A DNA stretch of 64,000 bases from a virus (IMGVR_UViG_3300047494_000112:1-64000), one strand, 5' to 3'. Positions 3,618-50,181 are shown, numbered from the stretch's first letter. The notes: generated by a model not told the origin, from the letters alone. Made by a program: numbers and translations.

Positions 3618-3830
3618 TTAACTAACTAAAATAACCGTATTATGCGTCTGAAAAATTGCTGAAGCGCTTTGATTTATGCTAGTTACATTTACTGTTTGTT
3701 GAATTAGATTCATGCTAGTTACAGTTGGCGTGGGCTGTGGCTGTACAGTAATTTCATTGGTCTTTGTAGAAATAACTGTTACATTTTGTGGCAAAGGTAA
3801 GGTCATGTAATCCACTCCAATAAAATACAA
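3618..3830 (-). CDS. Small hypothetical fibre-associated protein
   Basis: 70-aa ORF filling the gap between two fibre genes; V/T/Q-rich; start uncertain. Confidence 0.4.
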   Translation of the reverse strand: MYFIGVDYMTLPLPQNVTVISTKTNEITVQPQPTPTVTSMNLIQQTVNVTSINQSASAIFQTHNTVILVS

Positions 3831-5398
3831 CCTGATCCGCCGTTGCCACCATTACCGCCGCCAGCGCCATTTACCCCACCAGCACCACCTGAGCCTATCA
3901 AGCCTACGCCGCCGCCGCCCATGGGTGCTCCTGAAGACATGAAAGCAGAACCACCAAATCCGCCTAATAAACCGGATGTTGAACCTGAACCAATTTGCAT
4001 TCCTGGCCCACCAGTTTGTCCTTGTGTTCCAAAATTTTGACTTCCTCCGTTATTATTACCTGGAGCTACAAATCCTGCAGATCCTGGAGTAGCTTGAGCT
4101 CCTCCTCCAGAGTAAAAACCTTGGCCTCCCCCTCCTGCTGAAGCATAGCCAACAATTGTAGATGTACCTCCATTTCCTCCGTTTGTACCTATGCCTCCTG
4201 CACCAGACTTTCCAACTATAATTGTCAAATTTGATCCGGGAATAGTATTGACATAACCTTCACAATAGCCACCTGATCCTCCACCTGACCCAGCTGAACC
4301 CGGTACAGGCCCTGATCCTCCTCCGCCACCACCACCCCACATTTTAAATTTAAGGTTGTAGACATTGGAAGGTACGGTAAAAACATAGGTTCCAGAATTA
4401 GTAAAGGTCTTCAATTCTACGCTTTGATAAAAACTATTGAATAAAATTGAAGAGCAAATTGGATTTAACAATAACGAGTTATTAGATAAAGCGTACCCTA
4501 CTTGGACATAGCTATTGGTATAATAATTTGTAGTAGTAGATAGGATACCAGCACTTGATCCAGTATTAGAGTAATAGGCACTTCCAGAATTATAAGGAGC
4601 GCCTGAACTAATTGTAAAAATACCTCTAGAGTAGATTAGATCATTTGTACCTACCACACCAATATATTTTGTTGAGGTGGAGGGATCCCAAGGTACTAAT
4701 AAATTTGAATTGTTGTTAAAAGCAACAGCTGTACCTTCTGCAAAATTATAAGACGACAGGTTAGGATAAATGAAGGCTGAATCACTGGTATTCAAAACTC
4801 CTAAAATTTCTATCCATGAGCTACCATTATTTACAGCTAGCGAAGAAATTCCAGTTTTACTTAACGTATTGACTAGATAAGCATTATATGGAGCAGAATT
4901 AATTGTTGGCAATTGAGCTTCGGTAGCTACCGAAGGTAGTGAAGCATAATTTGCCAACAGGACGCTAACGTTGATAATATTTTGTACATTTGTTAGAACA
5001 ATAGGAATTACATAAACTCGGATATTGCCCACAACATTGGGATTAACATTTGTATTTGTCTGAGTTTTTACTTCGACACTAGATAATGCTGTAATTGTAA
5101 ACATTGTTCCGTCAGATAAAAACAGGCCAATGTTCCCAACATTGAAATTGCCTACACTTTCATCTAAAGTAACATAGAAAATCATAGAGTTTGTACTAGC
5201 ATTTGCAACATAGGTTATCTGACTAGTTGTACCAGTATAAACAAGATTTGTTACTCCGGTCATTGTTGCAGAGGGAGTAATTAGGCTTGAACCAATCTGA
5301 AAACTTGTTATTGAGATTGTAGCTCCGTTATTACCTGCCGTAACTGCAGCTGAATCTCCAGAATTTGTTATAACTGTTTGAGGACTTGTTACAGTCAT
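3803..5398 (-). CDS. Tail fibre protein (P2 gpH/DUF3751-like N-terminus, glycine-rich C-terminus)
   Basis: N-terminal ITSFQIG...ESVGNFNVGNIGLFLSDGTMF baseplate-attachment motif; C-terminal FTNSGTYVFTVP...WGGGGGGG Gly-rich domain; follows the wedge gene. Confidence 0.8.
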   Translation of the reverse strand: MTVTSPQTVITNSGDSAAVTAGNNGATISITSFQIGSSLITPSATMTGVTNLVYTGTTSQITYVANASTNSMIFYVTLDESVGNFNVGNIGLFLSDGTMFTITALSSVEVKTQTNTNVNPNVVGNIRVYVIPIVLTNVQNIINVSVLLANYASLPSVATEAQLPTINSAPYNAYLVNTLSKTGISSLAVNNGSSWIEILGVLNTSDSAFIYPNLSSYNFAEGTAVAFNNNSNLLVPWDPSTSTKYIGVVGTNDLIYSRGIFTISSGAPYNSGSAYYSNTGSSAGILSTTTNYYTNSYVQVGYALSNNSLLLNPICSSILFNSFYQSVELKTFTNSGTYVFTVPSNVYNLKFKMWGGGGGGGSGPVPGSAGSGGGSGGYCEGYVNTIPGSNLTIIVGKSGAGGIGTNGGNGGTSTIVGYASAGGGGQGFYSGGGAQATPGSAGFVAPGNNNGGSQNFGTQGQTGGPGMQIGSGSTSGLLGGFGGSAFMSSGAPMGGGGVGLIGSGGAGGVNGAGGGNGGNGGSGCILLEWIT

Positions 5399-5408
5399 GA
5401 TTTTTATC

Positions 5409-8174
5409 CTAAATTATAATGTTAGAAATAGCAACTTCATTTAGAGTAATGGTGCCATTTTTAGTGGTTTGTAGAGTATCAGTTACAACAGCATAGATTG
5501 AATTAGTAGTCGATGGAGTAATTGAAAGACTCCATGAATTATTAATAGAACTTCCACTTGCTGCTCCATAACTTGTAGCTCTATTAGAGAGTATCAAAGA
5601 TAAATTATTAGTTTGATATAGGTTAACCGTAATACTATCTGAGGGACCAAGAGTTGTTCCAGTAACAGTAAACGGAACTCCATTTGTCGCCGAAGAAGGA
5701 GCATTGATTGTTAGTAAATACTGTCCTGGTGATGGTAACGTTGGAGTTTTTAACTTTGTAGCTGTTATACTTTTTTCAAAAAATGAGGCTGAAAGATATT
5801 GAGCTACAGGAGTAATTGTAACCTTACCTGCAAAGGTCCTTAAAACTAAATAAATTGGAGCAGACTCAACCAAAAGTTGACGATATAAAGGTTCATCTAA
5901 TTCAGGAAAAGCTGAAGCATCGTAATAGACATCATAATAAGGTGTTGGAATCCACGTACCGCTACTAGATTGAGTAATCAATGTTCCAGGATTAGATGAA
6001 AGAGAAGCATACACTAATCCATTAGCATAGAGAGGTACATATTGAAAAGGTACTTGAGAAAAGAAAGATACAAAATTTGCAAACTGTTTACTGTTTCCTC
6101 TCGTTAGATAAAATGTACCCAAATATCTCATCAAACTATCATATTGATAGTATTGTAAGCCATAATCAGGAACCACAAAGCCCATTTGCCTAACTGTAGC
6201 GGCTTTCAATTCATCTTCAATGGCATTCACATTTCTAACATTTTGCAATTCATTAATTGAACTGTTGAACAAATTATTCCATTGTAGATCCATAGCTGAG
6301 ACCAAAGTCGTCCAAAAAGGATTGCTAGCATATTGTTCTGTCATCAACAAATTATAGTTTACATATTGCGTATATGTAGCTGTAGGATCTACATTGATAA
6401 ATTTGTTGTTAATAGCTTGGTTTAAAGAATAATCAGAACAATCTGACCATTGAAAAGTTAGTTTTGGATACCAGGGATAAGGTCTATCGTCCCAATAACC
6501 AGCACTCCAATTTGTAATGTTGCCATTTGGACTAGCATATTGAATGTAGGTAGAATAAATTGAGTAAAAATTACTACCTACATTATTATCTGATTGCCCA
6601 TTACTAGCAAATGGAAAGGAATATTCTCCACTAGACTGATGTAAAATTGCATCGGGTTGATTTGTCGCCAAGTTGATAGAAGGACATACAATATTGTATA
6701 GATATACAGATTTAGAGTTTGGCACCCAAGAAGTAGGAACAGACGAAAAATTGTATCCGTCAAAATTATAATGAATGTTTTCTATCCAAGCATCATAGTT
6801 TTTTAACTGCTGAATCCATGTAGTGGTGCTGGTAGGTCCTGCTATCGTTGTTCTTTGTTGATTTATTTGAGGGTCGTTAATTAGTCCATCAGCAGAATTG
6901 TAATATTCTTGATAATACCAATCCCAGTATTGTTGGCCTAAAATTCCTTCAACCAAGTAAGGCTGATTTGTCGATGCAGGATAATAAGATCCGTCTATGT
7001 TAGAGCCATAATTTCTCCAATCAGTTGTAGGAAAATTTGCCTGAATTGCAATATAAGAAATTGCACTATTCGACCACAAAGCATCCATGCTAAATATTCT
7101 AGAAGCTGTTGCAGTAAATGTAGGATATTTCTCGTTTTGAGATCCTTGCCACTCATTCCAATCAGCTACGTATGAAATATTGACACTTGTACCTAAAAAT
7201 AAGGAAGCAGATTGTTCAGCCAAAGTTATCAAATAGTCTACAGCAGGAAAATCTAAATTGACGCCTTGGGTAGAAGTCAATGTTGACAAACCTCTACCTA
7301 TATAAAAATCAGTCAGAGTTACACCACCAAACTCTTTGATAAAAGAAGAGAGCATTGTAGCATAATAAATTACAAAGTTAGAATAGGAAGTATCTAAGAT
7401 AGATTCATTATATGTTGAAGTCAATATACCTGCGCTAGAAAAAATGCAGGAATACGCTGATGTAGACTGGTTTCCAAAAAAAGTTGCAATTTGATCAGTC
7501 GCTTGAGTAGTACCAAAAGTTGAACCTGCATAGTTTTTTGCGGGAGAAATTGTTAATTGAGACGCTGGCGGGTAAGCAGGTTGACCAATTACAGAGTTGT
7601 TATCTGAGTAAGGATTTAATAAATTGTTATTTGAAGAAATGTCTGGGATAACAGTTAAACAAACAGAAACATTTATTTCTAAGGAACTTAAAGATAGTAG
7701 AAGATTTAAGATACTTTGGTCAGAAGGTGTTCCTCTAAAAGCAGGTAATCCATTTATCTGTGAAACCACATAGGCATCGGCTCGATTAATTCCTGCTACC
7801 TGCCATTCATAAGGCATTGTATCTAAAATTGCAGTTGTTACTCCTGGCTGTACATTTGTAGCAGCGCAATTTAAACTAGTTACATACCACCCAATATCTA
7901 AATGTACTTTCTTGATGTTAGGATAAGACTGTAGCATTTCATTTAAGCTAACAGTAATGTCTGTTTTTTCTGTTGTGTATTGTTGAGTATTAATGTTAAT
8001 GTAAACCTCAACAGCTTCATTTTGAGTATTAGTAATCAAAATTGGCGTCGGATCATAAGAAAATTCACCTTGACCGTTGCCTAAATGAATTTCAGTAATT
8101 GCTTGAGATATCGGAGCAACAGGTTGCGTAAGGTCCAAGGTTGCCAAGACGGGATTACTGGAAGGTAAACCCAT
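5409..8174 (-). CDS. Baseplate wedge (gp7/gpI-like) fused to an N-terminal GTA-type TIM-barrel-like domain
   Basis: Motifs GTPSDQS, FPAVDYL, ISYVADWNEW, MDALW, DWYY, WVPNSK, NQPD and WDDRPYP parallel the GTA baseplate TIM-barrel family. The C-terminal third (WTTLVSAMD...MGF...RGNSKQFANFVSF) is wedge-like. It follows the gp6-like gene. Confidence 0.7.
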   Translation of the reverse strand: MGLPSSNPVLATLDLTQPVAPISQAITEIHLGNGQGEFSYDPTPILITNTQNEAVEVYININTQQYTTEKTDITVSLNEMLQSYPNIKKVHLDIGWYVTSLNCAATNVQPGVTTAILDTMPYEWQVAGINRADAYVVSQINGLPAFRGTPSDQSILNLLLSLSSLEINVSVCLTVIPDISSNNNLLNPYSDNNSVIGQPAYPPASQLTISPAKNYAGSTFGTTQATDQIATFFGNQSTSAYSCIFSSAGILTSTYNESILDTSYSNFVIYYATMLSSFIKEFGGVTLTDFYIGRGLSTLTSTQGVNLDFPAVDYLITLAEQSASLFLGTSVNISYVADWNEWQGSQNEKYPTFTATASRIFSMDALWSNSAISYIAIQANFPTTDWRNYGSNIDGSYYPASTNQPYLVEGILGQQYWDWYYQEYYNSADGLINDPQINQQRTTIAGPTSTTTWIQQLKNYDAWIENIHYNFDGYNFSSVPTSWVPNSKSVYLYNIVCPSINLATNQPDAILHQSSGEYSFPFASNGQSDNNVGSNFYSIYSTYIQYASPNGNITNWSAGYWDDRPYPWYPKLTFQWSDCSDYSLNQAINNKFINVDPTATYTQYVNYNLLMTEQYASNPFWTTLVSAMDLQWNNLFNSSINELQNVRNVNAIEDELKAATVRQMGFVVPDYGLQYYQYDSLMRYLGTFYLTRGNSKQFANFVSFFSQVPFQYVPLYANGLVYASLSSNPGTLITQSSSGTWIPTPYYDVYYDASAFPELDEPLYRQLLVESAPIYLVLRTFAGKVTITPVAQYLSASFFEKSITATKLKTPTLPSPGQYLLTINAPSSATNGVPFTVTGTTLGPSDSITVNLYQTNNLSLILSNRATSYGAASGSSINNSWSLSITPSTTNSIYAVVTDTLQTTKNGTITLNEVAISNIII

Positions 8175-8737
8175 TAATTTTCTCCTAAATCTTTTAGTCT
8201 TTGTTTTGCAATAGGCCTAACATATTCCTCTTGATCTTTTAGCAAAGCTTTAGCATGGTTAGCATTTCCATTCCAAGCTACTGCTGCTCTTACATATCTA
8301 TTTGGATCTGAGATTAGCTTGTCTCTATGAGAATCGTTTCCATTCCAAGCTACTGCTTGTCTTACATTTGGATGTGGATCTTTTACTAGCTTGTCTCTAT
8401 GAGAATCATTTCCACTCTCAGCTACTGCATGTCTTACATACCAATCTGGATCTGAGATTAGCTTATCTCTGTGAGAGTCGTTTCCATGCTCAGCTACTGC
8501 ACGTCTTACATGCTCACTTGGATCTGAGATTAGCTTGTCTCTATGAGAATCGTTTCCATTCCAAGCTACTGCTCCTCTTATATATCTATTTGGATCTGAT
8601 ATTAGCTTATCTCTGTGAGAGTCGTTTCCATGCTCAGCTACTGCATGTCTTACATGCTCACTTGGATCTGAAACTAAAGAGTCTAAGTGTTTAGGATGAC
8701 CAATTTTAGCTAAAGCTTGGCGTTGTTTAGGTGTCAT
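8174..8737 (-). CDS. LRV/HEAT-like 24-aa repeat protein, family copy (6 repeats)
   Basis: N-cap MTPKQRQALAKIGHPKHLDS, six LxxDPxxxVRxAVAxxGNDSHRDK units and a C-cap; ATGA overlap upstream, TAATG overlap downstream. Confidence 0.92.
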   Translation of the reverse strand: MTPKQRQALAKIGHPKHLDSLVSDPSEHVRHAVAEHGNDSHRDKLISDPNRYIRGAVAWNGNDSHRDKLISDPSEHVRRAVAEHGNDSHRDKLISDPDWYVRHAVAESGNDSHRDKLVKDPHPNVRQAVAWNGNDSHRDKLISDPNRYVRAAVAWNGNANHAKALLKDQEEYVRPIAKQRLKDLGEN

Positions 8738-10368
8738 GTCAGTGAAGCCCTGTTTGATACCTGCATATTTAATGAAATGGTACCCAACGAAAGAAATTGA
8801 TTAGGCGATACAATTTGATCGGTACTAGGTTGTTGTAGCTGAACATATTGGATATTGCCATTTGGATCACTGTTGATAATTGTTTCCACAATATCAGACA
8901 TATAGATACTGTAGCCTAGAAATCCTGCTCTAGGAGTAAACAAACTAGTTAGATTGGCAATAATTAAATTTTCTAAAGTGGATAACGGAATCTGGTCAGT
9001 GCAAAATATATTTGCAGTAATGTTAACAGGAATTTGTACAGTATTTAGCTGAATAAATTGAAGATTAGCTCCGGCATAAGTTGAAAGCCAAGAAGTAAAA
9101 GCTTGAAACTGTGCTTGAGACCAATTGCTGCCTGAGGAAGGTAAGATTGCAACCTGTACTACCATCATGTAGTTTAGATTATCTGGAGCAAAAGAAGCTT
9201 GGCCTTGAAAGTACGCATCTATTACACCTGAATAGTTTAAGGCAAAAGCGTTATAATCTGATAAGGTTGAAGGTCGAACTTTTGCCGAATAAGAACCAGG
9301 AGAAATTATTTTATACTCACTAGCCAAACGTTGGTTTGAACCGTTGTTTGATGAGGTACTAGCGGTGCCCATGATTGTTATATTTTGAGATCCACTACCT
9401 GAAAAAACTGTTGTGCTGTAATTGAACATGCTTCCTTGTAGATTCAGATTACCATTTGCACCTAAGGTTGTAGCATAGGTGACCACAATTTGAGCATTAA
9501 TAGGAGGGATTACTCCATAATTGCCATCACCAAATGTAATTGTAGCGTTCCCTGAAACGTCAGTAGATTGATAATAAACTGTATCTGCAGGCCCATATTC
9601 CCAAAGCCCTGTAGCATAAAATGTTGTATACTCTGTAGGAGAATAGTTTGGTTTATCTAAAACGCTGCTGTTAACATATACTGCAATATCTTGGTCAGAG
9701 ATTGTAAAGTCAGGTGAGGTTAAGCTAAATGTTTGTAGTGCCTGCCCATTGCTATAAAAAGTTGCCGTGTTAACAGTACCTTGATATAGAGTAGCTGAAG
9801 CTGTAGTAGAGCCTACTGGAAAGAGTATTTGATTTCTATTAAAGAAATTAATTCCGCCAACGTTAAATTGAGTGTAGGAATTAATTAAAACAGAATTTGA
9901 GTAAGTTGTGGATAAAGTAAAAGTTACTCCCATTGAAGCAGGTGAACACCTTGCAATTCTAACGCCTAATAATCTAGTAATTTCATAGATAGAACTTGGT
10001 AATTGGGCAAAATCTAACATGCTTTCTTGCAAGGCTCGTTCAACTGAGAATTGATTGTAAGCTTGAGCTGTTGCAATCATTTCAATTAAAGTTTGGCCTG
10101 TTGCAGCTTCAGCAGTATTTGTCCAAGCAGGATTAGGAGAATTGTTTAAAATGCTTTGAAGTTCTGCAACATTAGATTCATAGTCCGGTTGAATTGCTGT
10201 CAAAGGCAAAGCTGCTGTCGAATATAAAGCAACATAGGTAGATAATAGCCCTTGAATAATGTTGCTATCGATACTCCCTACAGGTAAACCTAATGCTCCT
10301 GGCAAATTTTGTACAAGGTACGCTGATAAGGCTGATACGGTACTTCTAATTGGCTGATCAGCCATCAT
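8734..10368 (-). CDS. Baseplate wedge subunit (T4 gp6 / baseplate J-like)
   Basis: ERALQESMLDFAQLPSSIYEITRLLG, ITFGDGNYGVIPP and DYNAFALNYSGV motifs; follows the gp25-like gene. Confidence 0.85.
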   Translation of the reverse strand: MMADQPIRSTVSALSAYLVQNLPGALGLPVGSIDSNIIQGLLSTYVALYSTAALPLTAIQPDYESNVAELQSILNNSPNPAWTNTAEAATGQTLIEMIATAQAYNQFSVERALQESMLDFAQLPSSIYEITRLLGVRIARCSPASMGVTFTLSTTYSNSVLINSYTQFNVGGINFFNRNQILFPVGSTTASATLYQGTVNTATFYSNGQALQTFSLTSPDFTISDQDIAVYVNSSVLDKPNYSPTEYTTFYATGLWEYGPADTVYYQSTDVSGNATITFGDGNYGVIPPINAQIVVTYATTLGANGNLNLQGSMFNYSTTVFSGSGSQNITIMGTASTSSNNGSNQRLASEYKIISPGSYSAKVRPSTLSDYNAFALNYSGVIDAYFQGQASFAPDNLNYMMVVQVAILPSSGSNWSQAQFQAFTSWLSTYAGANLQFIQLNTVQIPVNITANIFCTDQIPLSTLENLIIANLTSLFTPRAGFLGYSIYMSDIVETIINSDPNGNIQYVQLQQPSTDQIVSPNQFLSLGTISLNMQVSNRASLT

Positions 10369-10856
10369 TTTTCTCCTAACTCTTTTAGTCTCTTTTTAGC
10401 TGCATCTCTGATACTACTATCTTCATCTTTTAGTAAAGCTTTTGCATAGTTAGCATTTCCATTCCTAGCTACTGCATGTCTTACATTCCAAATTGGATCT
10501 TTTACTAGCCTATCTCTATGAGAATCGTTTCCATGTGTAGCTACTGCATGTCTTACAATCCAATCTTTATCTTTTACTAGCTTGTCTCTATGAGAATCGT
10601 TTCCATTCCATGCTACTGCTGCTCTTACATGTCTATTTGGATCTGATACTAGCTTATCTCTGTGAGAGTCATTTCCACGCTCAGCTACTGCTTCTCTTAC
10701 ATACACATTTGGATCTGAAACTAGCTTGTCCCTATGAGAATCGTTTCCATGCTCAGCTACTGCTTCTCTTACATTCCAATCTGGATCTGAAACTAGCTTG
10801 TCTAAATGTTTAGGATGACCAATTTCAGCTAAAGCTTGGCGTTGGTTAGGTGTCAT
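10365..10856 (-). CDS. LRV/HEAT-like repeat protein, family copy (5 repeats)
   Basis: Same N-cap, repeat and C-cap; ATGA overlaps at both ends. Confidence 0.92.
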   Translation of the reverse strand: MTPNQRQALAEIGHPKHLDKLVSDPDWNVREAVAEHGNDSHRDKLVSDPNVYVREAVAERGNDSHRDKLVSDPNRHVRAAVAWNGNDSHRDKLVKDKDWIVRHAVATHGNDSHRDRLVKDPIWNVRHAVARNGNANYAKALLKDEDSSIRDAAKKRLKELGEK

Positions 10857-11272
10857 TGTGAAGGACTCAAAGTAATATTACTAGTTTGAACTCCAGGTAG
10901 GCCCTCAACAGAGTACGAGAGGACAAAATAATAAGTACCGTTTGACATGTCAGCGTAAACGTTACTGTCAGCAACGGAAATAGTTACACCAGGAACAAAT
11001 TTTTGAACTGAAAAGAAAATGTCATGCAAAATTGTATAAGCGTTTTGCGTTGTAATATTATTGAAGAGAAGTTGAGGTACACCACTACCAAATTGCGGTT
11101 GAAAGGGTCGTTCTCCTGGACTTGTTAGAAGAACGTTTATAATCATGTCGTTGATAGCATTTACATTAGTTAGTTGTAGAGGTCCTGTATCTAAAGTATA
11201 ATTAGAGTTTAGATCAATTAGATAACTCTTATTAAAAACTTGATTAGTGATGACATTTAAGGTTTGACTCAT
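10853..11272 (-). CDS. Baseplate gp25/gpW-like protein
   Basis: NVLLTSPGERPFQPQFGSGV motif; 139 aa. Confidence 0.88.
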   Translation of the reverse strand: MSQTLNVITNQVFNKSYLIDLNSNYTLDTGPLQLTNVNAINDMIINVLLTSPGERPFQPQFGSGVPQLLFNNITTQNAYTILHDIFFSVQKFVPGVTISVADSNVYADMSNGTYYFVLSYSVEGLPGVQTSNITLSPSQ

Positions 11273-11274
11273 TT

Positions 11275-11919
11275 CTAATAATCCGTTTGACCAGAAAAGC
11301 TAGTGTTAGCGGGAGTTTCTCTAACTATAGGGGTTAAATTTGAAGCTGGATTAGAGCCTGTGTTTAAATTTATTTTTGTTCCTGTTAGATTAATTTTGCC
11401 ACTTGAATAAATGCTACAATCTCCAGTGGCATTTACATTTAACGATGAACTAGATACAATGTTGATTACGCCATTACTAAACTGAATATATGACCCATCA
11501 ACCATGTTATATGTCCATGTCTTGGACACTGTATCAACCTTAAAAAGATTACCAGCAGCATCAACCCATCCATATTGAGTAGGTGCAGTAAAATCTATTA
11601 GTTTACTAGACTGATCCATTGAACTACCAAGCCAATAAGTGTTCACAGCATCATTTTCAGGAAAATAGACAGCAACCTTACTACCATTTACAGGTACTCC
11701 AAAACCTCCTATGCCTGGGGCATTCCCTTGAAATAGATTTTGAATAGGTAAGGTCCAAGGCAAGACAGCATCTTGATAACCTTGATGAAGTAATCCAATA
11801 CGTACCTGCAAGCGTTGAATTCCCATTGGATCATTATTGTTAACAACATAGCCAAATAAAATTTGACCTGTTAAATTGTAAGACTGAGATTGATTATCTA
11901 ATCCATTCAAAATGGTCAT
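11275..11919 (-). CDS. Baseplate central spike (gp5/gpV-like OB-fold plus beta-repeat)
   Basis: GYVVNNNDPMGIQRLQVRI...PW...VPVNGSKVAVYF OB-fold motif; C-terminal short beta repeats ending GTKINLN. Confidence 0.85.
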   Translation of the reverse strand: MTILNGLDNQSQSYNLTGQILFGYVVNNNDPMGIQRLQVRIGLLHQGYQDAVLPWTLPIQNLFQGNAPGIGGFGVPVNGSKVAVYFPENDAVNTYWLGSSMDQSSKLIDFTAPTQYGWVDAAGNLFKVDTVSKTWTYNMVDGSYIQFSNGVINIVSSSSLNVNATGDCSIYSSGKINLTGTKINLNTGSNPASNLTPIVRETPANTSFSGQTDY

Positions 11920-12554
11920 ACATTATGTCCTAACTCTTTTATTCTAACTCTTGCAGCAGTACTAACATATTTCTCTTTATCATTTAGCAAAGCTTTAGCA
12001 TGGTTAGTGTTTCCATACTTAGCTACTGCATATCTTACAGATGAATTTTTATCTTTTACTAGCTTATCTCTATGAGAGTCGTTTCCATGCTGAGCTACTA
12101 AATATTTTACATCTGGATCTTTATCTTTTACTAGCTTGTCTCTATGAGAATCGTTTCCATGCTCAGCTACTGCATATCTTACACCTACATGTGGATCTGA
12201 AATTAGCTTGTCTCTATGGGAATCATTTCCATGCTGAGCTACTGTATATCTTACAGAATAATCTGGATCTGAAATTAATTTGTCCCTTTGAGAGTCATTT
12301 CCAATTCTAGCTACTGCTTGTCTTACAGACGAATCTTTATCTTTTACTAGCTTGTCTCTATGAGAATCGTTTCCATGCTCAGCTACTGCATATCTTACAA
12401 TCCAATCTGGATCTGATATTAGCTTATCTCTATGGGAGTCGTTTCCATTCCTAGCTACTGCTTGTCTTACATTAAAATTTGAATCTGAAACTAGCTTATC
12501 TAAATGCTTAGGATGACCAATTTGAGCTAGAGCTTGGCGTTGGTTAGGTGTCAT
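11916..12554 (-). CDS. LRV/HEAT-like repeat protein, family copy (7 repeats)
   Basis: Same architecture; sits between the hub and spike genes with ATGA overlaps on both sides. Confidence 0.92.
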   Translation of the reverse strand: MTPNQRQALAQIGHPKHLDKLVSDSNFNVRQAVARNGNDSHRDKLISDPDWIVRYAVAEHGNDSHRDKLVKDKDSSVRQAVARIGNDSQRDKLISDPDYSVRYTVAQHGNDSHRDKLISDPHVGVRYAVAEHGNDSHRDKLVKDKDPDVKYLVAQHGNDSHRDKLVKDKNSSVRYAVAKYGNTNHAKALLNDKEKYVSTAARVRIKELGHNV

Positions 12555-13732
12555 GAGAGCAATCCTGAAACAGTATTAGCCGTAATTGGTCCATTATTAG
12601 TTAGTTCTAATTTCTCGTAATAGCGATTAGACCAATACACTCTACTTGTAGCTGTCACAATATAGGTCCCATTCACCAAAGAGTTTGTGTTATTTCCTTC
12701 AGTTGTAGAAGTAAAAGAAACAGTGTCAAATAACTTTAAACCTGACTTTTGGTATAACATTACGTAGACATTTTGAACGTAGGTACATTTTAATCTATGG
12801 TTTTGATGCCTAGCTTGAATATAATTATCATGCGAGTTACCGCAATCAGCTGCTGGAAGAGACATTTTTGAAACAGGCTTAATAGCACCGGAAACATTTG
12901 AATTAATGTCTAATTGATTAGTTGTCACTGTCGCATCTGTTGCTAAATATTTATTCTGATTAGGCCCTGATAGTGTTTGCTGTACAGTTCTTTGTCCATA
13001 GCCACCTAATGAATTAAATAGACCAGATCTATTAATTGCTCGATACTGCAACGCTACAAAGGTATTAGATTGAGTCTGTTGGTTAGAATTTGTTGAAGCA
13101 TTAGGTGCCCCAAAGTAAATGTATGCTACAGGAGGCTTGCTAAACAAAGGCACAATGTTGGCAAAATATAGGTTTTTTTGCTCATCTATACCCCAACTTT
13201 GTACTGAATTATTGTCTATATAGCTATGTTTTGAAACATATTCTGCAAACCCTGCCCAAGTTTTCTTGGCTGGAAGCCAAGTCATACTATCGTTTCCTGA
13301 AACATTTGTCACAAAATTAAAGCCATTTTGAGTGGCTATGTTCTTCATTACAGTGTTAGAGGTTCCAGTCAAGGTGGTATTAGGATTGCTACGGATAAAA
13401 GGAATACTATCTAATAGTCCTGTAATAGTATAAACCGTTTGATCTGAATGATTAGGCATATGAGATCTTTTAGGAGTTCCAAAAGCCCTAAACTGCACCT
13501 GAGTAGGATCATTTGTACTGGTATCATCCATAATAACGCCCAAAAGAGTACCATCTACAATAGGTAACGCTGTATTAATTACTGAGATAGGATCATTTAT
13601 CACTATCCTTAGTGAAGGTAAAGGCTGTTTAACATTTGTGGTGATAATGCACTGACAACCAGGCAAGGAAATAATTGGAAAATTAACTCCACTAATATAA
13701 AAATTTAATCTGCTTTGACCATCAATTTGCAT
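12551..13732 (-). CDS. Baseplate hub protein (gp27/Mu gp44-like)
   Basis: 393 aa, beta-rich, C-terminal GTYIVTATSRV motif; canonical position before the spike. Confidence 0.65.
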   Translation of the reverse strand: MQIDGQSRLNFYISGVNFPIISLPGCQCIITTNVKQPLPSLRIVINDPISVINTALPIVDGTLLGVIMDDTSTNDPTQVQFRAFGTPKRSHMPNHSDQTVYTITGLLDSIPFIRSNPNTTLTGTSNTVMKNIATQNGFNFVTNVSGNDSMTWLPAKKTWAGFAEYVSKHSYIDNNSVQSWGIDEQKNLYFANIVPLFSKPPVAYIYFGAPNASTNSNQQTQSNTFVALQYRAINRSGLFNSLGGYGQRTVQQTLSGPNQNKYLATDATVTTNQLDINSNVSGAIKPVSKMSLPAADCGNSHDNYIQARHQNHRLKCTYVQNVYVMLYQKSGLKLFDTVSFTSTTEGNNTNSLVNGTYIVTATSRVYWSNRYYEKLELTNNGPITANTVSGLLS

Positions 13733-13733
13733 A

Positions 13734-14129
13734 TTAAAAACTTACTGTTGAAGGTGTAGGAGCATTGGTTTGAATGTTAGATTGATTTATAGCTGTTGCA
13801 GCATTAGGAATTAATACAATGTCACCATTGTTCATTTGTAAAGGATGAATGTACCCATTCATCATTGCAATCATCCACCAAGTAGATGTATTACCCGTAG
13901 CTTTAAAAGCTTGGGTTGTTAATTGCTGACCAGTAGAAAAAGTGTAATAAGCAGTAGGAGATAGAGAGTTTATAACTGATAGATAAGTTTTGCTTAAGAC
14001 ATCAGGTACTAATACCTGTTTGTTATTGGTCTCAATTTGAACGTAAGGAATAAAATTGCTACGCAGATATTGCGAATTTTCATTTGTACTTGAAGTAGAT
14101 AAAGTAACATTAGGATATCCGCCCGCCAT
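13734..14129 (-). CDS. LysM-like / gp53-like baseplate wedge protein
   Basis: AFKATGNTSTWWMIAMMNGYIHP...GDIVLIP tail-X/LysM-like motif. Confidence 0.7.
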   Translation of the reverse strand: MAGGYPNVTLSTSSTNENSQYLRSNFIPYVQIETNNKQVLVPDVLSKTYLSVINSLSPTAYYTFSTGQQLTTQAFKATGNTSTWWMIAMMNGYIHPLQMNNGDIVLIPNAATAINQSNIQTNAPTPSTVSF

Positions 14130-15076: not shown

Positions 15077-17332
15077 TTATCCAAAAGCTACAGCAGAATT
15101 AGATGCTGTCATAGACGGATCATAGCCCATCCCCATGTGAATCTCATCAATAGAAGGCATCATTCCTGGTAAACCAGAGCCAACATTATTCATTGCTGTT
15201 TGATTTTTTGTAGTATTTGTACTGGGTGTAGATACAGGAGGAGTAGATACTACTGCCGAAGGTGTGGCTTTACTTCTATTATAAGCTATACTAGAATTTG
15301 CTAAACCTGTTGCAAAATCAGGCTGAGAATTTAAGCTTGAAGTCATATTAGCTTGAATTTGAGCCAAAGTTAGAGGTTGGCTAGTTCCTTCACTCTTGAA
15401 ATTATTATAAAATAAGCTTTGATTGCTTGCAGCAGCTTTAGGAAAAAGCTGAGCTCCAATAGAGTTTGGATTGGCGTTTAAATCTTGTATGAATTTTTCG
15501 CCTCCAGATTGCCCCATAAACCAGGTATCATACAAGTTTGTAGCTGTTGCATTTTTACCTAGTCTTTTCTTTTCATCAGAAAAATAAGCTGCAGCTAAAG
15601 CTGCTTGTTGTTTGGGGTCTTGCCAATTATAATTGGATAAAGTTATACCTAACTGTTTTCCATATTGAGAAATTAAGCCTATTGCTGTAGAATCAGTTAT
15701 TTGAAATAAGCCTTTTGCAGAAGTAGGTACACCATTGGCTCCAGCTTTGATATTTGGATTATAACCGCTTTCTTTTCCCGCAATCTTTGTCAATAAATCA
15801 GCAGTATTAGTGTCACCATTTGAAGCTGAACCAATCGCTTGAAAAGAAGAATAAGAGTTAGCACCTATATTTTGACCATTACCTATTGTTCCGCTAATAG
15901 CTGTAGCATCATTATCAGAAGGACCCATTGTTAAAAAAGACAAAGGCCCACCTACTGACGAACTTCCACCTGTCATGTATGCTGCTTGAATTATTTGAGG
16001 TGTATTTGAATTACTGGATTGGTCTGAAAAATTAGAGATAGAAGTAGCTTTATTTGAAAGAGGCTGAGTTCCATCACCTAAGATCAAATTGTTTACATAC
16101 AGTTTGTCTAAGATAATCTTTTTATTAGGTGTATAATCAGTATCTTTAATCATTGAATTAAGAATAGGCATATCTGGAGAAGGCATAGATCCAGCTGAAC
16201 CTACTGCAGGCAAATCTTTTCTTAAACCGTGATGTTTAATTAAGGCCATTGTAGAGGTGTCATTAATAGAACTAAAATTTGGAATTAAAGGTTTTCTAGT
16301 ACCACCAGTTCTCCAACCTGCCATGCCTGTAGGTAAATCTGACGCGGGTTGCATACCGCCTTCAGTATCAGCATAACCGATCAAACTTCCAACTATAGCT
16401 CCACCAACTGTTCCGTAAGGTCCTAATAAAGATCCTGCAGCAGCATCTTGAGCGGCTTGTCCTCCAACAGAAATGATTGAATTACCTAGCCTTTTTGGAT
16501 TATCAGCAGGTACACTTTCTAGCCGTAGTTTATTTGATACGCGACCCGCATTTTCACCTATTAACCCCATTCCTACAGCAGGCAACAAAAAAGGATCAGT
16601 TAAAAGACTCTTGGTGACATTTAAATCTCTAATGTGAGATAATACTGAAGAAGCTTTTTTTATAGCTCTACCTGCTGATCCTAATTCATCTCCCGGTCCA
16701 GAACCTATTGATTTAATGTCTGGTTTTGAAGCATGATCTACACCTGTAGGTTTATCTGATCCTGTAGGTTTATCTGAGCCCGGATTGTAGCCTTTGTCAG
16801 TATTTTGGCCACCTCTTCCTGAATGATTCTTAGAGGCATCACGATAATTTTTTGCATCATCATTTGCCGCTTTTTCTCTGGCAGCTTTATCTTTAGCCGC
16901 CTTATCGCGCGCCGCTTTATCTTTAGCTGCCTTATCAGCTGCAGCTTTTGCGGCAGCTGCTTTTGCGGCCGCTCCCATTAGGTCGCCAAGTAACCCACCT
17001 GATGAAAATAAACCTTTGCCGTTTTTATTTCCACCATTAGCTAAAAGATCGTAAATATCTTGAAGAATAGTATAGGTAGCCTTTTGCCATTTTTCAGTAA
17101 TAACAATGTGCTTTTTTTCTAAGGCAATATAATCAGTAAAGCCTGCTTGAAAAGCTACCACATTACCCATGCTATTGCTAGATGAATTGTTATTTATGGC
17201 TTTCAGTAAGGTAATTGTCTCTTTGCCAATTTGAGAATTTTGACGGTCACGGGTTTCTTGTTTTGCAAACTCGGTTCGCAAACTGGTCATTAAAGCTTGT
17301 CTAACTTGAAGAGCATCGGTAGTAGAAACCAT
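15077..17332 (-). CDS. Tape measure protein with SLT-type lytic transglycosylase domain
   Basis: KESGYNP...SAKGLFQIT lysozyme-fold motif; A/K/D-rich helical repeat (AAADKAAKDKAARDKAAKDK); position after the chaperone. Confidence 0.8.
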   Translation of the reverse strand: MVSTTDALQVRQALMTSLRTEFAKQETRDRQNSQIGKETITLLKAINNNSSSNSMGNVVAFQAGFTDYIALEKKHIVITEKWQKATYTILQDIYDLLANGGNKNGKGLFSSGGLLGDLMGAAAKAAAAKAAADKAAKDKAARDKAAKDKAAREKAANDDAKNYRDASKNHSGRGGQNTDKGYNPGSDKPTGSDKPTGVDHASKPDIKSIGSGPGDELGSAGRAIKKASSVLSHIRDLNVTKSLLTDPFLLPAVGMGLIGENAGRVSNKLRLESVPADNPKRLGNSIISVGGQAAQDAAAGSLLGPYGTVGGAIVGSLIGYADTEGGMQPASDLPTGMAGWRTGGTRKPLIPNFSSINDTSTMALIKHHGLRKDLPAVGSAGSMPSPDMPILNSMIKDTDYTPNKKIILDKLYVNNLILGDGTQPLSNKATSISNFSDQSSNSNTPQIIQAAYMTGGSSSVGGPLSFLTMGPSDNDATAISGTIGNGQNIGANSYSSFQAIGSASNGDTNTADLLTKIAGKESGYNPNIKAGANGVPTSAKGLFQITDSTAIGLISQYGKQLGITLSNYNWQDPKQQAALAAAYFSDEKKRLGKNATATNLYDTWFMGQSGGEKFIQDLNANPNSIGAQLFPKAAASNQSLFYNNFKSEGTSQPLTLAQIQANMTSSLNSQPDFATGLANSSIAYNRSKATPSAVVSTPPVSTPSTNTTKNQTAMNNVGSGLPGMMPSIDEIHMGMGYDPSMTASNSAVAFG

Positions 17333-17335: not shown

Positions 17336-17575
17336 TTACTTCATTCCATTAAGAGCGGCAGCTAAAGCTGCTCCACGTAAAGGCTGTTTTTTGCCAGAAT
17401 TAGCCTGTACATTTTGCCTGTTATTTGCTTTAATTCTATCCAGGTTGAAAAGATCAGAAAAATAAAGAAACATTGCAGAGTTATTGTAAATAAAATCAGG
17501 AATATTTTGCATACCTACACTTAACGAGTAAACTCTATTGAGTATATCTTGCTCAGAAAAGATCGGGAAAGAAAT
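17336..17575 (-). CDS. Putative frameshift extension of the tail chaperone (G/GT type), or a separate small ORF
   Basis: 79-codon open +1 frame overlapping the chaperone end (ISFPIFSEQDILNRVYSL...LNGMK*). It ends TAA TAG immediately before the tape measure ATG. Confidence 0.55.
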   Translation of the reverse strand: MSFPIFSEQDILNRVYSLSVGMQNIPDFIYNNSAMFLYFSDLFNLDRIKANNRQNVQANSGKKQPLRGAALAAALNGMK

Positions 17576-18728
17576 CTAAAATTCCTAGTTTTAGATTAAT
17601 GGTTTCGAGCATCGGCTCCGCCTCACCCGGGTTAGATATCAATCTAGTCAATTCTTTTTGAACAGCATCTCTGCGTTTGTAAAAAAGCTCTTCAGTAATA
17701 GGATCGAGATTAATTTCAGTAGCTAGTGCATTATTAAGCATTTCAAGATCAGCTGCAAGAGTTTTTAATGCTTCATCATACACAAAATGTTGATCTTTTA
17801 CCTGTGTTGTTTCGTAGATTCCGCTATCAGATAATTCAGCAATAAACTCTTTAATCTCATAAAGTAACTCAACTCCTTCTTCACTATCTAACTTTGCTTT
17901 TTGTTCGTGCAGTCCCGATCCTTGCAAGTACATTGCACGTTCATACAGCCAAGCTTGATCTTCTTCCAATTTGCCTGAAAAAGTAGAGTAATGTTCAGAA
18001 TCTTGTACATCAGGTACTTTGTATCCTTTTGCATACCACTCCTGATAACGTTCCTTTGTCATTTTTAAAGGGGTCACTGAGACGTCAGTTAAGGCAATTT
18101 TAGTTTTATTGCTATTGCCGTAAATTGACTGCCAGGTAGCAAGGTAAGGAGTTTTGATAAAGCTATTCATGCGATGCCAGTACATTACCCAACGAGCATC
18201 AACTGTCCAAAGCTTACGAATTGAAACGTTTAAGGTCTTGTCCAAAGTGTCGTAAAGCAAGACTGTATCCCTACGTTTCTTTGCTTTGTACAACATTGCT
18301 AGTTCTGGAGCCTTGAACGGCCGGATAAAGACATTTTGTGCATCATATAGAATATTGTTTGAAGGTAAAGCTAATCTTTCACCGAACATGCTGTCTTGAG
18401 ACATTTTTTCAGTTGGACGCATTTCAACGTTATCATCAGGCATTTGTTCTAACTGAAATGCTTCTTCATTAAAGAAAGCCAAGTCAGGAGAATTTGTTAA
18501 AACCTTTGTAGGCTCAGGTAAATGCTCATTTGGCTGGTTGTACTTGATAGGTTGAATGGGTGGATTAGCTTGTACAGCGCGTTTTGGCTGAAGCTGTTCA
18601 GGTGTAGGAAGCCGTAGGTTTGAATCCAAAGCTGCATTCACGCTAACAGCGCGACGTGCTTTGTTTTGTTGGTTAGGAAAAGGTACCTGCTGAACAGGTT
18701 GAGTGGCTTGTCTCACGGATTGCTCCAA
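17553..18728 (-). CDS. Tail/baseplate hub assembly chaperone (gp26-like)
   Basis: LALPSNNILY...VFIRPFKAPE motif; lies between the tube genes and the tape measure; Pro/Gln-rich N-terminus. Confidence 0.65.
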   Translation of the reverse strand: MEQSVRQATQPVQQVPFPNQQNKARRAVSVNAALDSNLRLPTPEQLQPKRAVQANPPIQPIKYNQPNEHLPEPTKVLTNSPDLAFFNEEAFQLEQMPDDNVEMRPTEKMSQDSMFGERLALPSNNILYDAQNVFIRPFKAPELAMLYKAKKRRDTVLLYDTLDKTLNVSIRKLWTVDARWVMYWHRMNSFIKTPYLATWQSIYGNSNKTKIALTDVSVTPLKMTKERYQEWYAKGYKVPDVQDSEHYSTFSGKLEEDQAWLYERAMYLQGSGLHEQKAKLDSEEGVELLYEIKEFIAELSDSGIYETTQVKDQHFVYDEALKTLAADLEMLNNALATEINLDPITEELFYKRRDAVQKELTRLISNPGEAEPMLETINLKLGILDFFPDLF

Positions 18729-18831: not shown

Positions 18832-19539
18832 CTAAATTAATTGAACCAAATTTTTTGTAACACTGCTTAAAGCTGTACCGCCAGCAGCTAACAGACCTGT
18901 TGTTAAACCACCAGATAATAAAGTTGAAAACCCTTCACCTATGTAAGTAATGGTTGTTCCATTAACGGCAAACTCTGCAGCGGTCATTACCATATCAGAG
19001 TGAGAGTAATTTAAATCCACTTGCTGTTGGTGAGTAGGCCAAACGCCATCTAATTGCACCTGCATTTGTTGCAGACCAGTAGTATCATATAGTCTAATTA
19101 TAATACATCCCATGTAGTTACTAGGTGTGTACCAATTTCCTACTTTATCACGAATTTGCTGACGCCATTGTTCCAAATAATAAGAGATGGAATAAGTTTG
19201 AGGCTCATAAAAAATCAGATTAGTGTTAAGAGATTGCATCCCCTTTGGAAAATTTTGATAGATACCATTACGATAACGCTGTTCAGCAGTAATAGAATTA
19301 TAGCCAAAATTAATGTCTTTAATGTAAATATTTTCCAACTGCACTAGACCAGGAACACTAGTTATATCAGCTGTCCACATCCAGTTGGGCGCAGGATCTT
19401 GCAAGCCTTCGTATTGTGAGGTTGTAGGAAAACCTCCAATACCTACTAAAGACCCGACCAAACCTACTAAACCTGTTGCAGTTTCTGTACTAATAGCCCC
19501 GGTCAGTGAGTTTGTTACATCTGTAATCAGACCTGACAT
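18832..19539 (-). CDS. Second tail-tube-fold protein (gp54/gp19-like)
   Basis: FYEPQTYSISYYLEQWRQQI...IRLYDTTG...LDGVWPT tube-family pattern. Confidence 0.7.
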   Translation of the reverse strand: MSGLITDVTNSLTGAISTETATGLVGLVGSLVGIGGFPTTSQYEGLQDPAPNWMWTADITSVPGLVQLENIYIKDINFGYNSITAEQRYRNGIYQNFPKGMQSLNTNLIFYEPQTYSISYYLEQWRQQIRDKVGNWYTPSNYMGCIIIRLYDTTGLQQMQVQLDGVWPTHQQQVDLNYSHSDMVMTAAEFAVNGTTITYIGEGFSTLLSGGLTTGLLAAGGTALSSVTKNLVQLI

Positions 19540-23795: not shown

Positions 23796-24191
23796 TTAGG
23801 ATACAGTAGCTACTTGAACAGTGGCTACAGAGCTTGTAGGGTTATATAGCTGAATACCTGAAGCTGAATAAGACCCTGAAAAAACAAAAATATAGCCAGA
23901 AGCTGTCGAAGTGCCAGGATTTGAAACCAAGTTGGTTATATCAGGAGTACAGGTAATATTTAGTATTGTATCAGATATAATACCGATCAATTGATAAGCA
24001 AAAACTATTTGAGATCCGCTAGGTTCAATTGATAAAGTGGTTACATCTTGATTGTTGATTACAGGAATACCTACAGTTTGATTTGCTCTAACATTTCTAA
24101 AGTTTAGTCCTGTAGTTATAAACTGTAACGCTACAGTGAAGGTTGTATTGATGTTAGGATTAATTGTTGGTAGAGATACTGTATCGCTCAT
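23796..24191 (-). CDS. Hypothetical virion protein (beta-rich)
   Basis: 131 aa, ATGA-coupled to the upstream gene, in the neck/tail region. Confidence 0.6.
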   Translation of the reverse strand: MSDTVSLPTINPNINTTFTVALQFITTGLNFRNVRANQTVGIPVINNQDVTTLSIEPSGSQIVFAYQLIGIISDTILNITCTPDITNLVSNPGTSTASGYIFVFSGSYSASGIQLYNPTSSVATVQVATVS

Positions 24192-24880
24192 GCTGAACCT
24201 TTTGGTCGGTTTATAGTAGTGGTTGCAATTGGAATAGAGTCATTTGTTGCTTGGTCATACGCATCAATATTAACATTGACCTTTGTTATAGCTTGCTGCA
24301 ACTCTAATACTCCTACATACGCATAAAATGTTAGCTGAGCTTGCATCACAAACAAATTACCCATTTCCGTAAATTCTTCTTCTGGAATAGACAAGTCAGT
24401 ATTAAATTTGACTTTGATTGGCAAATTATACTGTGTAGTCTTTAAGGCAAACTGTACATCTCTTTCACGAAAAATCCAACGCTGAGCAAAATATGCAATA
24501 TCAGAAAACGTTTGAGCAGTTACTCTAACAGTCATATCCACTGCTGTAGGTCTACAATGCAGAACAACGTTGCTAGGTGTGGCTGTATTAGAGTTCAATT
24601 GACCCATGTAGAAGCCATTATACATGGCTTGATCGTTATAACCTTCCTCGGAAGGTCGGATTGTGTTAACAATAATTGCAATAAAGGGCATATCCACTAG
24701 TTTGTAGTTTTTTGCCACTTCGCGAAAATCTTGATTGCCGGCAACATGAACAACTTTCCAAGGAGGTTTGCCATATTCAGCCGCTGCATTACCCAATAAT
24801 GATTTTAGAGAAGATATACAGTTTTCTAAAACCTTCAATTCGGTAACACGAGCTTGAGTAATATCAAAAACTTGGGTCAT
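24188..24880 (-). CDS. Putative tail terminator / neck protein
   Basis: 230 aa; position before the sheath; PFIAI...PTAVDMTVRV...AQRW pattern typical of tail-completion proteins. Confidence 0.5.
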   Translation of the reverse strand: MTQVFDITQARVTELKVLENCISSLKSLLGNAAAEYGKPPWKVVHVAGNQDFREVAKNYKLVDMPFIAIIVNTIRPSEEGYNDQAMYNGFYMGQLNSNTATPSNVVLHCRPTAVDMTVRVTAQTFSDIAYFAQRWIFRERDVQFALKTTQYNLPIKVKFNTDLSIPEEEFTEMGNLFVMQAQLTFYAYVGVLELQQAITKVNVNIDAYDQATNDSIPIATTTINRPKGSA

Positions 24881-48143: not shown

Positions 48144-48145
48144 TT

Positions 48146-49529: not shown

Positions 49530-49760
49530 TTAATCTTCTTTAACAGGGATACAGGTTCTAGCTCCTAGATCAACCCACATGCTAAATTCCTTGCCCTGGA
49601 AAGAACCTTTAACGAGCTGCATAGGTTGTTTTGATGCTGACGAAAGAGGAGGTTTTTCTGTAGCAGCCACCAATGAACTAATAACCTCAACCTTTGCTTT
49701 AATTACTTTTTTGTCGGCTTCAGGATTACAAAACAATGGGTCAATTAATTCTCTAGTCAT
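49530..49760 (-). CDS. Hypothetical protein
   Basis: 76 aa between repeat genes; TAATG coupling. Confidence 0.6.
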   Translation of the reverse strand: MTRELIDPLFCNPEADKKVIKAKVEVISSLVAATEKPPLSSASKQPMQLVKGSFQGKEFSMWVDLGARTCIPVKED

Positions 49761-50179: not shown

Positions 50180-50181
50180 TT

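Follow-up and report, generated by a model that had tools for sequence, protein, structure and literature searches.

Repeat genes of the LRV/HEAT family at the gene junctions of a phage baseplate operon

Results

Three repeat genes stand between baseplate genes

Few gene blocks are known to be as syntenic as the baseplate operons of myophages. We analyzed the window IMGVR_UViG_3300047494_000112:1-64000, which makes up the opening 64 kb of a viral record of 187,324 bp that IMG/VR classes as linear and estimates to be about 81% complete, and in which genes matching the Pfam families LRV (PF01816) and HEAT (PF02985) lie between genes of the baseplate operon. The order on the minus strand is tape-measure-like gene, two small genes, hub-position gene, LRV copy A, spike, gp25, LRV copy B, gp6-like gene, LRV copy C and megatron-like gene (Table 1); coordinates and profiles agree that the three repeat genes break up the order hub-spike-gp25-gp6-next baseplate gene. 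A preliminary description of this DNA had reported the same gene order and coordinates, and these stand; its "gp7" is to be replaced, since that gene is GTA_TIM/megatron-like, and "hub" is kept here because of position only, as profile and structure searches matched the 393-aa protein to nothing in Pfam, NCBIfam or the PDB. The source, a metagenome, has a depth of about 9-10x. Independent Logan unitigs from the source run span all six LRV/baseplate junctions, running from the unique baseplate segments into LRV sequence on both sides (7399-8207, 8696-10378, 10828-12003 and 12500-13800); these unitigs break inside every copy, so that the copy interiors are unbridged.

The three junctions are empty in related phages

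Relatives were found by a protein search with gp6 (55-73% identity, the nearest about 72%), and all are metagenomic fragments, designated below by L numbers. A nucleotide search of the region against GenBank phages gave no match, and scans of IMG/VR with gp6 and with an alignment of the repeat family found no relatives. The hub, spike, gp25, gp6 and megatron genes are contiguous in six relatives (L002 and its 52,971-bp twin, L003/L004, L005/L006, L007 and L009), and all three junctions are empty there. The copy A site, between hub and spike, is empty in L003, L005/L006, L007, L008, L009 and the 52,971-bp contig: the relatives keep the 393-aa gene directly upstream of the spike gene with a 4-nt ATGA overlap, and their empty site reads TCATGAC(C/A), a native ATGAC overlap, and the left junction of copy A likewise has the 7 bases TCATGAC. 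The copy B site, between gp25 and gp6, is empty in L002, L003, L005, L007, L008 and L009, which have there a spacer of 10-13 nt carrying a ribosome-binding site (the L007 figure holds if its gp6 starts at the upstream ATG). At the copy C site, between gp6 and the megatron-like gene, the spacer is 1-3 nt in L002, L005, L008 and L009 and 25 nt in L003.

In a gp6 tree with outgroups the phage falls inside a subclade with L003, L002 and L007, whose sister group is L005, L009 and L008 (supports 96-100). Since it is nested among relatives with empty sites, one gain per site is more parsimonious than several exact losses, and the reading of the three baseplate copies as lineage-specific insertions is well supported by this sequence comparison. 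Orthologous copies at the same junctions, which would have spoken for long residence, were found at none of the three baseplate sites in these relatives. At synonymous sites the baseplate orthologs are saturated (dS > 1.5) and the paralogous repeat genes stand at dS 0.25-0.42. The only run containing the phage (contigs only, and probably its source) has no contig that joins hub to spike or skips a cassette; the "joints" listed for it are paralog cross-mapping and are uninformative on population variants.

The copied unit corresponds to the open reading frame

Homology between copies sets in precisely at the ATG and goes no further than the stop; neither the preceding nor the following 60 nt are conserved, and no flank matches extend beyond neighboring family members. 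The copied unit is thus essentially the open reading frame (ORF); the preliminary description had suggested aligning all junctions in search of a conserved boundary. One exception is informative. The copy at 50182-50601 and the copy at 180.7 kb share 11 upstream bases (CAAGGTACGTC), which at 50.6 kb encode LQGTS, where the family member ahead of the copy natively ends, and at 180.7 kb encode QGTS, the end of an unrelated 535-aa gene. We take CAAGGTACGTC to be a copy-and-paste footprint that gives both the donor, the terminase-portal array, and the direction of copying.

For each baseplate copy the closest match is a distant copy with an equal number of repeats, and not one of its baseplate neighbors. 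The nearest paralogs are the 178.5-kb copy for copy A (82% nucleotide identity), the 180.7-kb copy for copy B (84%) and 48146-48709 for copy C (81% over the full length); overall the copies are 80-85% identical, and the genome contains no near-identical pair, the best being at 84%. Within genes that are otherwise about 82% identical, copy A shares an exact tract of 116 nt with 49760-50179, and copy B shares one of 82 nt, in a different repeat register, with 32864-33499. Such exact tracts indicate ongoing gene conversion between copies.

The junctions are tight on both sides of the baseplate copies

As the preliminary description had noted, each of the three baseplate copies starts in an ATGA that overlaps the upstream TGA, and its Leu-Gly codons place AGGA(G) ahead of the next gene: TTAGGAG or TTAGGAC lies 5-9 nt before the next start and supplies the ribosome-binding site. 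At their 3' ends copies A and B overlap the next gene by ATGA and copy C reads TAATG; the C-terminus of copy A is atypical (LGHNV). The flanking repeats are ATGAC (5 nt) at copy A, AATGA (5 nt) at copy B and ATG only (3 nt) at copy C. The earlier proposal that removal of a cassette restores an original ATGA overlap was thus right about the ATGAC and AATGA at both ends and right about the hub/spike junction; at gp25/gp6 and gp6/megatron such an overlap is not the ancestral state, because the relatives have spacers there, and the junction at 8734 had already been recognized as one that does not fit.

Genome-wide, 4-nt overlaps occur at 13 of 28 LRV junctions and 27 of 215 others (Fisher p = 6e-5), and gaps of 3 nt or less at 27 of 28 and 93 of 215 (p = 2e-8), p-values that are to be read with the non-independence of paralogs in mind, since the copies have a common ancestor. 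All seven isolated copies overlap an unrelated upstream gene by ATGA. This start is not special to the copies, because it is a habit of the whole genome (125 of 264 other genes, 47%). With spacers of 3 nt or less, or overlaps, at 27 of 28 junctions there is no room for a promoter or terminator, and the copies do not look like morons, which have a promoter and terminator of their own. The presence of a stop in each off-frame among the first 12 nt (ATGACACCTAA) was considered as an adaptation of the cassette and rejected, since 42 of the 264 other genes (16%) show it as well. The three tandem LRV junctions in the genome all read ...AAATAAAAATGACACC; an RNA hairpin there between GUUAGG of the C-cap and CCUAAC of the next copy was also discarded, since it occurs at two of the three tandem junctions, is weak (z = -2.1, -1.1 and -0.5) and is absent at the three baseplate junctions.

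The proteins are predicted repeat solenoids with a fixed scaffold and variable positions

The three baseplate copies score 63-67 bits against the HEAT profile (cutoff 23.5); against LRV (cutoff 21.6) copies C and B score 32-40 bits and copy A, at 20.7, is just under, and all three match phrog_20647 (E = 1e-45 to 1e-76). Copies have in common an N-cap (MTPNQRQALAeIGHPKHLDKLVSDP), three to seven 24-residue units (consensus xxVRxAVAxxGNDSHRDKLvsDp) and a C-cap (GNANHAKALLKD..VR..AKQRLKELGEK), and gene lengths rise in 24-aa steps (139, 163, 187, 211). An AlphaFold model of copy B, made with the paralog alignment as input (pLDDT 96.7), has helices of 10 and 7 residues in alternation, repeating every 24 residues, and its best Foldseek match in the PDB is 1LRV (TM 0.80, rmsd 2.4 A), with designed alpha-Rep binders next. 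The genes are thus predicted to encode 24-residue LRV/HEAT solenoids.

Across 64 units the scaffold is nearly invariant and unit positions 3, 7, 8 and 21-24 are hypervariable. The dN/dS ratio is 0.24 for scaffold codons and 1.6 for the hypervariable ones, a contrast that is partly circular because the codon classes were picked by their variability. Scaffold codons nonetheless appear to be under purifying selection, and a frameshift is present in only one of the 16 canonical copies, so that the copies seem to encode functional proteins kept by selection and not to be neutral passengers. A fixed scaffold with hypervariable positions makes the set look like diversifying binders, a function that we infer from this pattern. 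The N-cap "LAE" was ruled out as a prohead-protease site of the T4 type, position 11 being variable. A literature search found nothing on the LRV family in phages or on its behavior at junctions.

Family members elsewhere in the genome

The 187-kb genome contains at least 19 members, namely 16 canonical copies (one frameshifted) and at least three diverged ones, with copies also at 178.5 kb and 180.7 kb. Nearly all sit in late or structural modules (baseplate, terminase-portal and portal-protease, and tail in relatives), and the terminase-portal array is likely to be the donor array. In L010 and L024 the small genes of the terminase-portal interval retain their order, and LRV copies are few or lacking there. 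In this genome the copies at 32.9, 36.0, 49.0 and 47.7-48.7 kb separate genes whose homologs in L010 or L024 adjoin or keep their order; in L010 the homologs of the genes flanking 32864-33499 adjoin with a 2-nt spacer, and its SprT-like gene is followed by a 66-aa gene with no LRV gene in between. The protein of 44755-45768 has the IGHPKH cap and LRV units in its N-terminal part and a C-terminal half of about 130 aa without family match; a 76%-identical relative carries a 105-aa HEAT-like gene behind its portal gene.

Table 1. Baseplate genes and LRV/HEAT family members; coordinates are those of the 187,324-bp record
Feature	Coordinates	Strand	Remarks
Tape-measure-like gene	15077-17332	-	precedes two small genes, then hub-position gene
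393-aa baseplate gene, hub position	12551-13732	-	phrog_25710; TGA stop inside ATGA start of copy A
LRV/HEAT copy A (LRV-A), 212 aa	11916-12554	-	Pfam HEAT/LRV, phrog_20647 E = 7e-76; between hub and spike
Spike / gpV-like OB-fold protein	11275-11919	-	PF04717 Phage_base_V, phrog_430
gp25-like baseplate wedge protein	10853-11272	-	PF04965 just under curated cutoff; phrog_261 E = 1e-19; stop within ATGA start of copy B
LRV/HEAT copy B (LRV-B), 163 aa	10365-10856	-	HEAT/LRV and phrog_20647 profiles; between gp25 and gp6
gp6-like baseplate wedge protein	8734-10368	-	phrog_219 E = 2e-55, TIGR02243
LRV/HEAT copy C (LRV-C), 187 aa	8174-8737	-	HEAT/LRV and phrog_20647; between gp6 and megatron-like gene
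921-aa GTA-megatron-like baseplate multidomain protein	5409-8174	-	PF13547 GTA_TIM E = 8e-48; NF048004 GTA_megatron E = 7e-103 (below curated cutoff); phrog_4271
Isolated LRV copy, 211 aa, TTG start	32864-33499	-	between 392-aa gene and topoisomerase-IB-like gene
Isolated, more diverged LRV copy, 142 aa	36009-36437	-	behind SprT-like gene 36434-37390
Isolated LRV copy, 163 aa	40591-41082	-	ATGA overlap with upstream ADP-ribosyltransferase gene 41079-42797
103-aa diverged family gene	44451-44762	-	behind portal; PF01816 and phrog_20647 matches within 44451-45768
337-aa LRV protein with unrelated C-terminal part	44755-45768	-	directly behind portal; PF01816 and phrog_20647
Terminase-to-portal interval	47718-51574	-	six canonical LRV copies and one diverged, interleaved with three conserved small genes
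Six canonical copies, terminase-portal	50939-51574, 50182-50601, 49760-50179, 49038-49529, 48146-48709, 47718-48143	-	in interval
Diverged 114-aa member, terminase-portal	50598-50942	-	in interval
Frameshifted canonical LRV copy	183403-183900	+	break after fourth unit (GNDS*), rest including C-cap in next frame

Some neighboring genes deserve mention in their own right. The gene directly downstream of the copy at 32864-33499 (30937-32862, minus strand) encodes a 641-aa protein with the catalytic core of a eukaryotic-type topoisomerase IB (PF01028), and its position is kept in L010 and L011. The ADP-ribosyltransferase (ADPrib_exo_Tox) gene at 41079-42797 (minus strand), which adjoins an LRV copy, has counterparts in L003:1-1958 and L010:2810-3601; such genes are multi-copy in relatives, L003 having three consecutive ones next to its tail tube gene, and the ADP-ribosyltransferases are a second expanding family in the late region. 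Behind the baseplate genes, 3803-5398 (minus strand) encodes a 531-aa protein with a long, extremely Gly-rich C-terminal region (GGGGG and GSGG runs).

Different junctions are occupied in different relatives

Across the clade about 14 junctions are filled in some phages and empty in others. When metagenomes were scanned with the family alignment, 14 loci with the IGHPKHLD cap came up, and we mapped their neighbors onto this genome. In keeping with the cassette-like behavior originally attributed to these genes, differing junctions are filled in L008, L015, L018, L022, L025 and L027. L025 is filled where this phage's genes 24188-24880 and 23796-24191 overlap by ATGA, and L027 is filled between homologs of 18832-19539 and 17553-18728; both are junctions of tail genes, and in this phage both are empty. 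Between the homologs of a 385-aa and a 155-aa gene L022 is filled and L020 empty, and this genome has its frameshifted copy there. L015 has two copies at a junction that in L024 measures 25 nt, and L018 has three copies to one in L019, with flanks 92% identical. In all these cases, the copies that split genes in this genome included, the insert's ATG lies -8 to +14 nt from the upstream stop. At the 3' end the fit is close only if the native junction was itself tight, and L015 and L027 retain the native spacer including its hairpin.

The flanks of these inserts are heterogeneous. The L022 insert lies between direct 10-nt repeats, AAAGGAAT(A/G)A, from which it follows that it took over the tail of the target gene together with its ribosome-binding site, and the L008 insert has a possible, imperfect flanking repeat of about 11 nt; none is present in L015, L025 or L027. 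The constant target duplication that the preliminary description had suggested looking for was thus not found across the junctions, where repeats range from 0 to about 11 nt (5, 5 and 3 nt at the baseplate copies) and differ in sequence.

The baseplate operon of L008 (gp6 58-60% identical) has an insertion of its own, a 463-aa gene between spike and gp25 in which an unrelated N-terminal domain is fused to LRV repeats and the C-cap, and which may be a fused two-gene block. In this gene (L008:3890-5281) the N-terminal half resembles, by eye, a 299-aa protein just upstream of a portal-adjacent LRV gene in L011 (L011:8366-9265 and 9290-9997; WCTAA-type motif). The 193.6-kb relative L005/L011 has no baseplate copy and at least five copies around the portal gene, with a different N-cap; these overlap by 14 nt the next gene, whose ATG falls within their C-terminal codons (CAAAATG), and CCCTAAC contains the upstream stop, TAA. 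An N-terminal module, M(A/P)NPNRKY(H/D)TA(E/D)(E/D)VDK, is common in L011 (3411-5654 and 8366-9997) to LRV genes and two non-LRV genes (288 and 278 aa), and the 14-nt overlaps run through it. Contigs from a moss metagenome, with ends at 8730 and 12554, join LRV 5' ends to upstream sequence absent from this genome; because of these foreign flanks, another genome in the moss sample must carry close family members.

A search for a mobility mechanism

Profile searches of the 187-kb genome showed HNH (PF01844), HNH_3 (PF13392), GIY-YIG (PF01541) and LAGLIDADG (PF14528) domains to be absent and gave no match to tyrosine integrases, serine resolvases or reverse transcriptase (RVT_1), in a record that is about 81% complete and in which DDE transposase families were not searched individually. 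A genome-encoded nuclease or recombinase acting on the cassette ends, as the preliminary description had envisaged, was accordingly not found among nuclease, integrase, resolvase and reverse transcriptase families. A HUH Rep-like ORF at about 75.3 kb was set aside as a mobilizer, since it has no Pfam or PHROG match; a RuvC-like resolvase gene and the topoisomerase-IB-like gene are present as generic candidates only. Relatives carry HNH genes and inteins in terminase, helicase and other genes (L010:3653-7345, L011:1-856 and L005:21063-21581), and this genome has no HNH or LAGLIDADG match.

The cassette ends have no terminal inverted repeats, and CCTAAC/GTTAGG was dropped in that role for want of consistent covariation across copies. 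Internal inverted repeats of 10-21 nt between the N-cap and C-cap coding regions occur in the three baseplate copies (13 nt in copy C); we judged them coincidental, as they reflect a near-palindromic string coding for Ala-Lys-Ala-Leu / Gln-Ala-Leu-Ala and by eye should be weak or absent where the C-cap reads ARAL, and in relatives. Nor do the ends show extra synonymous conservation (caps pS 0.20-0.24, body 0.25-0.32). A diversity-generating retroelement does not account for the variation, which is between paralogs and not adenine-specific, in a genome with no RVT_1 match. The proposal of a transposase-less mobile element is not supported in its mechanistic sense: neither an enzyme of the families searched, end repeats, constant duplication nor cassette-less variant was found.

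Discussion

We think it probable, though by some way not certain, that recombination has dispersed a promoter-less, translationally coupled and diversifying binder gene from tandem arrays. LRV copies would have been duplicated in this phage's lineage out of such arrays, most visibly the one between terminase and portal, and pasted into stop/start junctions of late operons, the three baseplate junctions included. What is copied would be about one array period, from ATG to stop, and would bring neither promoter nor terminator nor spacer with it. Its ATG(A), abutting or overlapping the preceding stop, would be translated by coupling, and the conserved Leu-Gly-Glu codons of the C-cap (TTAGGAG) would give the next gene its ribosome-binding site, so that the downstream baseplate genes would stay expressed. 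The route may have included unequal crossover within arrays, ectopic recombination at short homologies among stops, starts and ribosome-binding sites, and gene conversion, and new copies would be retained because their proteins are useful. The unit looks "pre-adapted" because an array period must run from an ATG to a ribosome-binding site and stop; array inheritance and the genome-wide ATGA habit thus explain its fit better than does an element pre-adapted to be neutral in operons, as originally proposed, and the dN/dS values suggest function instead of neutrality. General recombination with selection is favored because the junctions are heterogeneous, conversion tracts and array-length polymorphism are present, and no enzyme or end motif was found.

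Several considerations weigh against this explanation. At least ten dispersals, each within a few bases of an upstream stop, are too regular for random illegitimate recombination unless selection for expression is strong, which we assume. The direct repeats of about 10 nt at the native junction in L022, and more weakly in L008, could be target-site duplications from a staggered cut, and a mobilizing enzyme could be encoded in the missing part of the record. Copies resemble one another more closely within a genome than across phages at a shared junction, so that conversion between copies may have wiped out the signals of both age and orthology, and the order of events is uncertain.

The regular placement and the repeats of about 10 nt would also suit a true non-autonomous mobile cassette, ORF-sized and moved by a dedicated trans-acting enzyme or an unrecognized activity that targets stop/start junctions, which we regard as unlikely without dismissing it. 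The sporadic filled and empty pattern at about 14 junctions across the clade, homology confined to the ORF, the overlap of seven of seven isolated copies with an upstream stop, the direct repeats at L022 and possibly L008, and the LRV 5' ends with foreign flanks in the same metagenome are all what such a cassette would leave. It is opposed by the lack of HNH, GIY-YIG, LAGLIDADG, reverse transcriptase, integrase or resolvase matches and of profile support for the HUH-like ORF, by flanking repeats that vary in length from 0 to about 11 nt and in sequence, by termini without inverted repeats and caps that have diverged at synonymous sites about as much as the body, by a best copy pair of only 84% identity, and by the lack of a cassette-less variant in the run that holds the phage. 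A related and similarly doubtful notion is a junction-hopping gene, an ORF-sized, promoter-less unit that copies itself into stop/start junctions through an unrecognized recombination activity of the phage and is non-polar through its own coupling signals; if true, the phage would thereby have a binder-protein library that expands by itself.

The remaining explanations concern the baseplate itself. Its copies might be functional partners of the baseplate (assembly factors, or proteins carried in the virion or ejected from it) whose positions reflect a need for co-expression, which would fit the late or structural location of nearly all copies, the apparent purifying selection on the scaffold and the independent copy in the same operon of L008; we give this little credence, as six relatives make the same baseplate without LRV genes, each baseplate copy is closest to one elsewhere in the genome, and the occupied junctions change from phage to phage. 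Still less probable is that the copies are ancestral residents of the operon, precisely deleted in all sampled relatives. The flanking ATGAC and AATGA repeats could drive precise deletion, gene conversion could make old copies appear young, and arrays do lose copies (L018 versus L019); against this, the gp6 tree requires at least two to three independent exact losses per site versus one gain, and the relatives' spacers look native, with ribosome-binding sites and conserved length. That the repeats led the assembler to thread LRV sequence between baseplate segments seems very improbable. The metagenome's depth of about 9-10x and the unbridged copy interiors leave some room for it, but unitigs enter LRV sequence from each unique baseplate segment on both sides, the gene order is that of the relatives, and reading frames and overlaps are all intact.

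Three members of one paralog family inserted in one operon, together with a mosaic of filled and empty junctions across the clade, point to a route by which genes can be added inside essential operons without regulatory DNA or polarity. The targets of the LRV proteins could reveal host-takeover or anti-defense interactions. Should a dedicated insertion mechanism exist, these would be mobile genes of a new class, and the mechanism might serve as a tool for inserting genes into operons without polarity.

Known systems resemble this one in part. Free-standing homing endonuclease genes, such as T4 seg/mob and HNH genes between structural genes, likewise occupy intergenic junctions of conserved operons sporadically and without polar damage; the LRV cassettes, however, contain no nuclease domain (HEAT/LRV matches only), in a genome without HNH, GIY-YIG or LAGLIDADG, and are paralogs spreading within one genome rather than one gene homing between genomes. 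In the PeSL cassettes of T4-type phages, promoter and stem-loop motifs flank ORFs in hyperplastic regions (Arbiol et al. 2010, PMC2839356; Comeau et al. 2014, PMC4122927), and recombination shuffles single ORFs within phage genomes without a transposase, as we propose here; LRV copies differ in that they have no flanking motif and, at most junctions, no intergenic DNA, their homology stops at ATG and stop, and they are inserted in core structural operons. Large phages and giant viruses also show lineage-specific expansions of small domains, zinc ribbons for instance reaching about 35 copies in Bacillus phage G (PMC7824862), and one viral genome then has numerous paralogs of a small module, presumably with a part in conflict or regulation; the LRV copies, by contrast, are dispersed into conserved late-operon junctions, are not only clustered, and are built for coupling on both sides. 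The same repeat family, at about 50% identity, is present in unrelated T4-like and jumbo phage contigs, where checked as single genes or in pairs (a pair in L013), and in Vibrio phage vB_VmeM-32 (KU160494) at roughly five loci; the vB_VmeM-32 gene that we examined stands alone between predicted terminators with normal spacers, and the caps differ. In structure the closest likenesses are the Azotobacter vinelandii LRV protein (1LRV), with its solenoid of 24-residue helix-helix repeats, and the designed alpha-Rep binders (TM about 0.75); like alpha-Rep libraries, the phage proteins vary at a few positions, spaced i, i+4 and i+8 on the longer helix. They differ from both in their family-specific caps and in their number, at least 19 copies in one genome. 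With a fixed scaffold, hypervariable positions and variable repeat number, the LRV family looks like a natural counterpart of designed libraries of repeat-protein binders.

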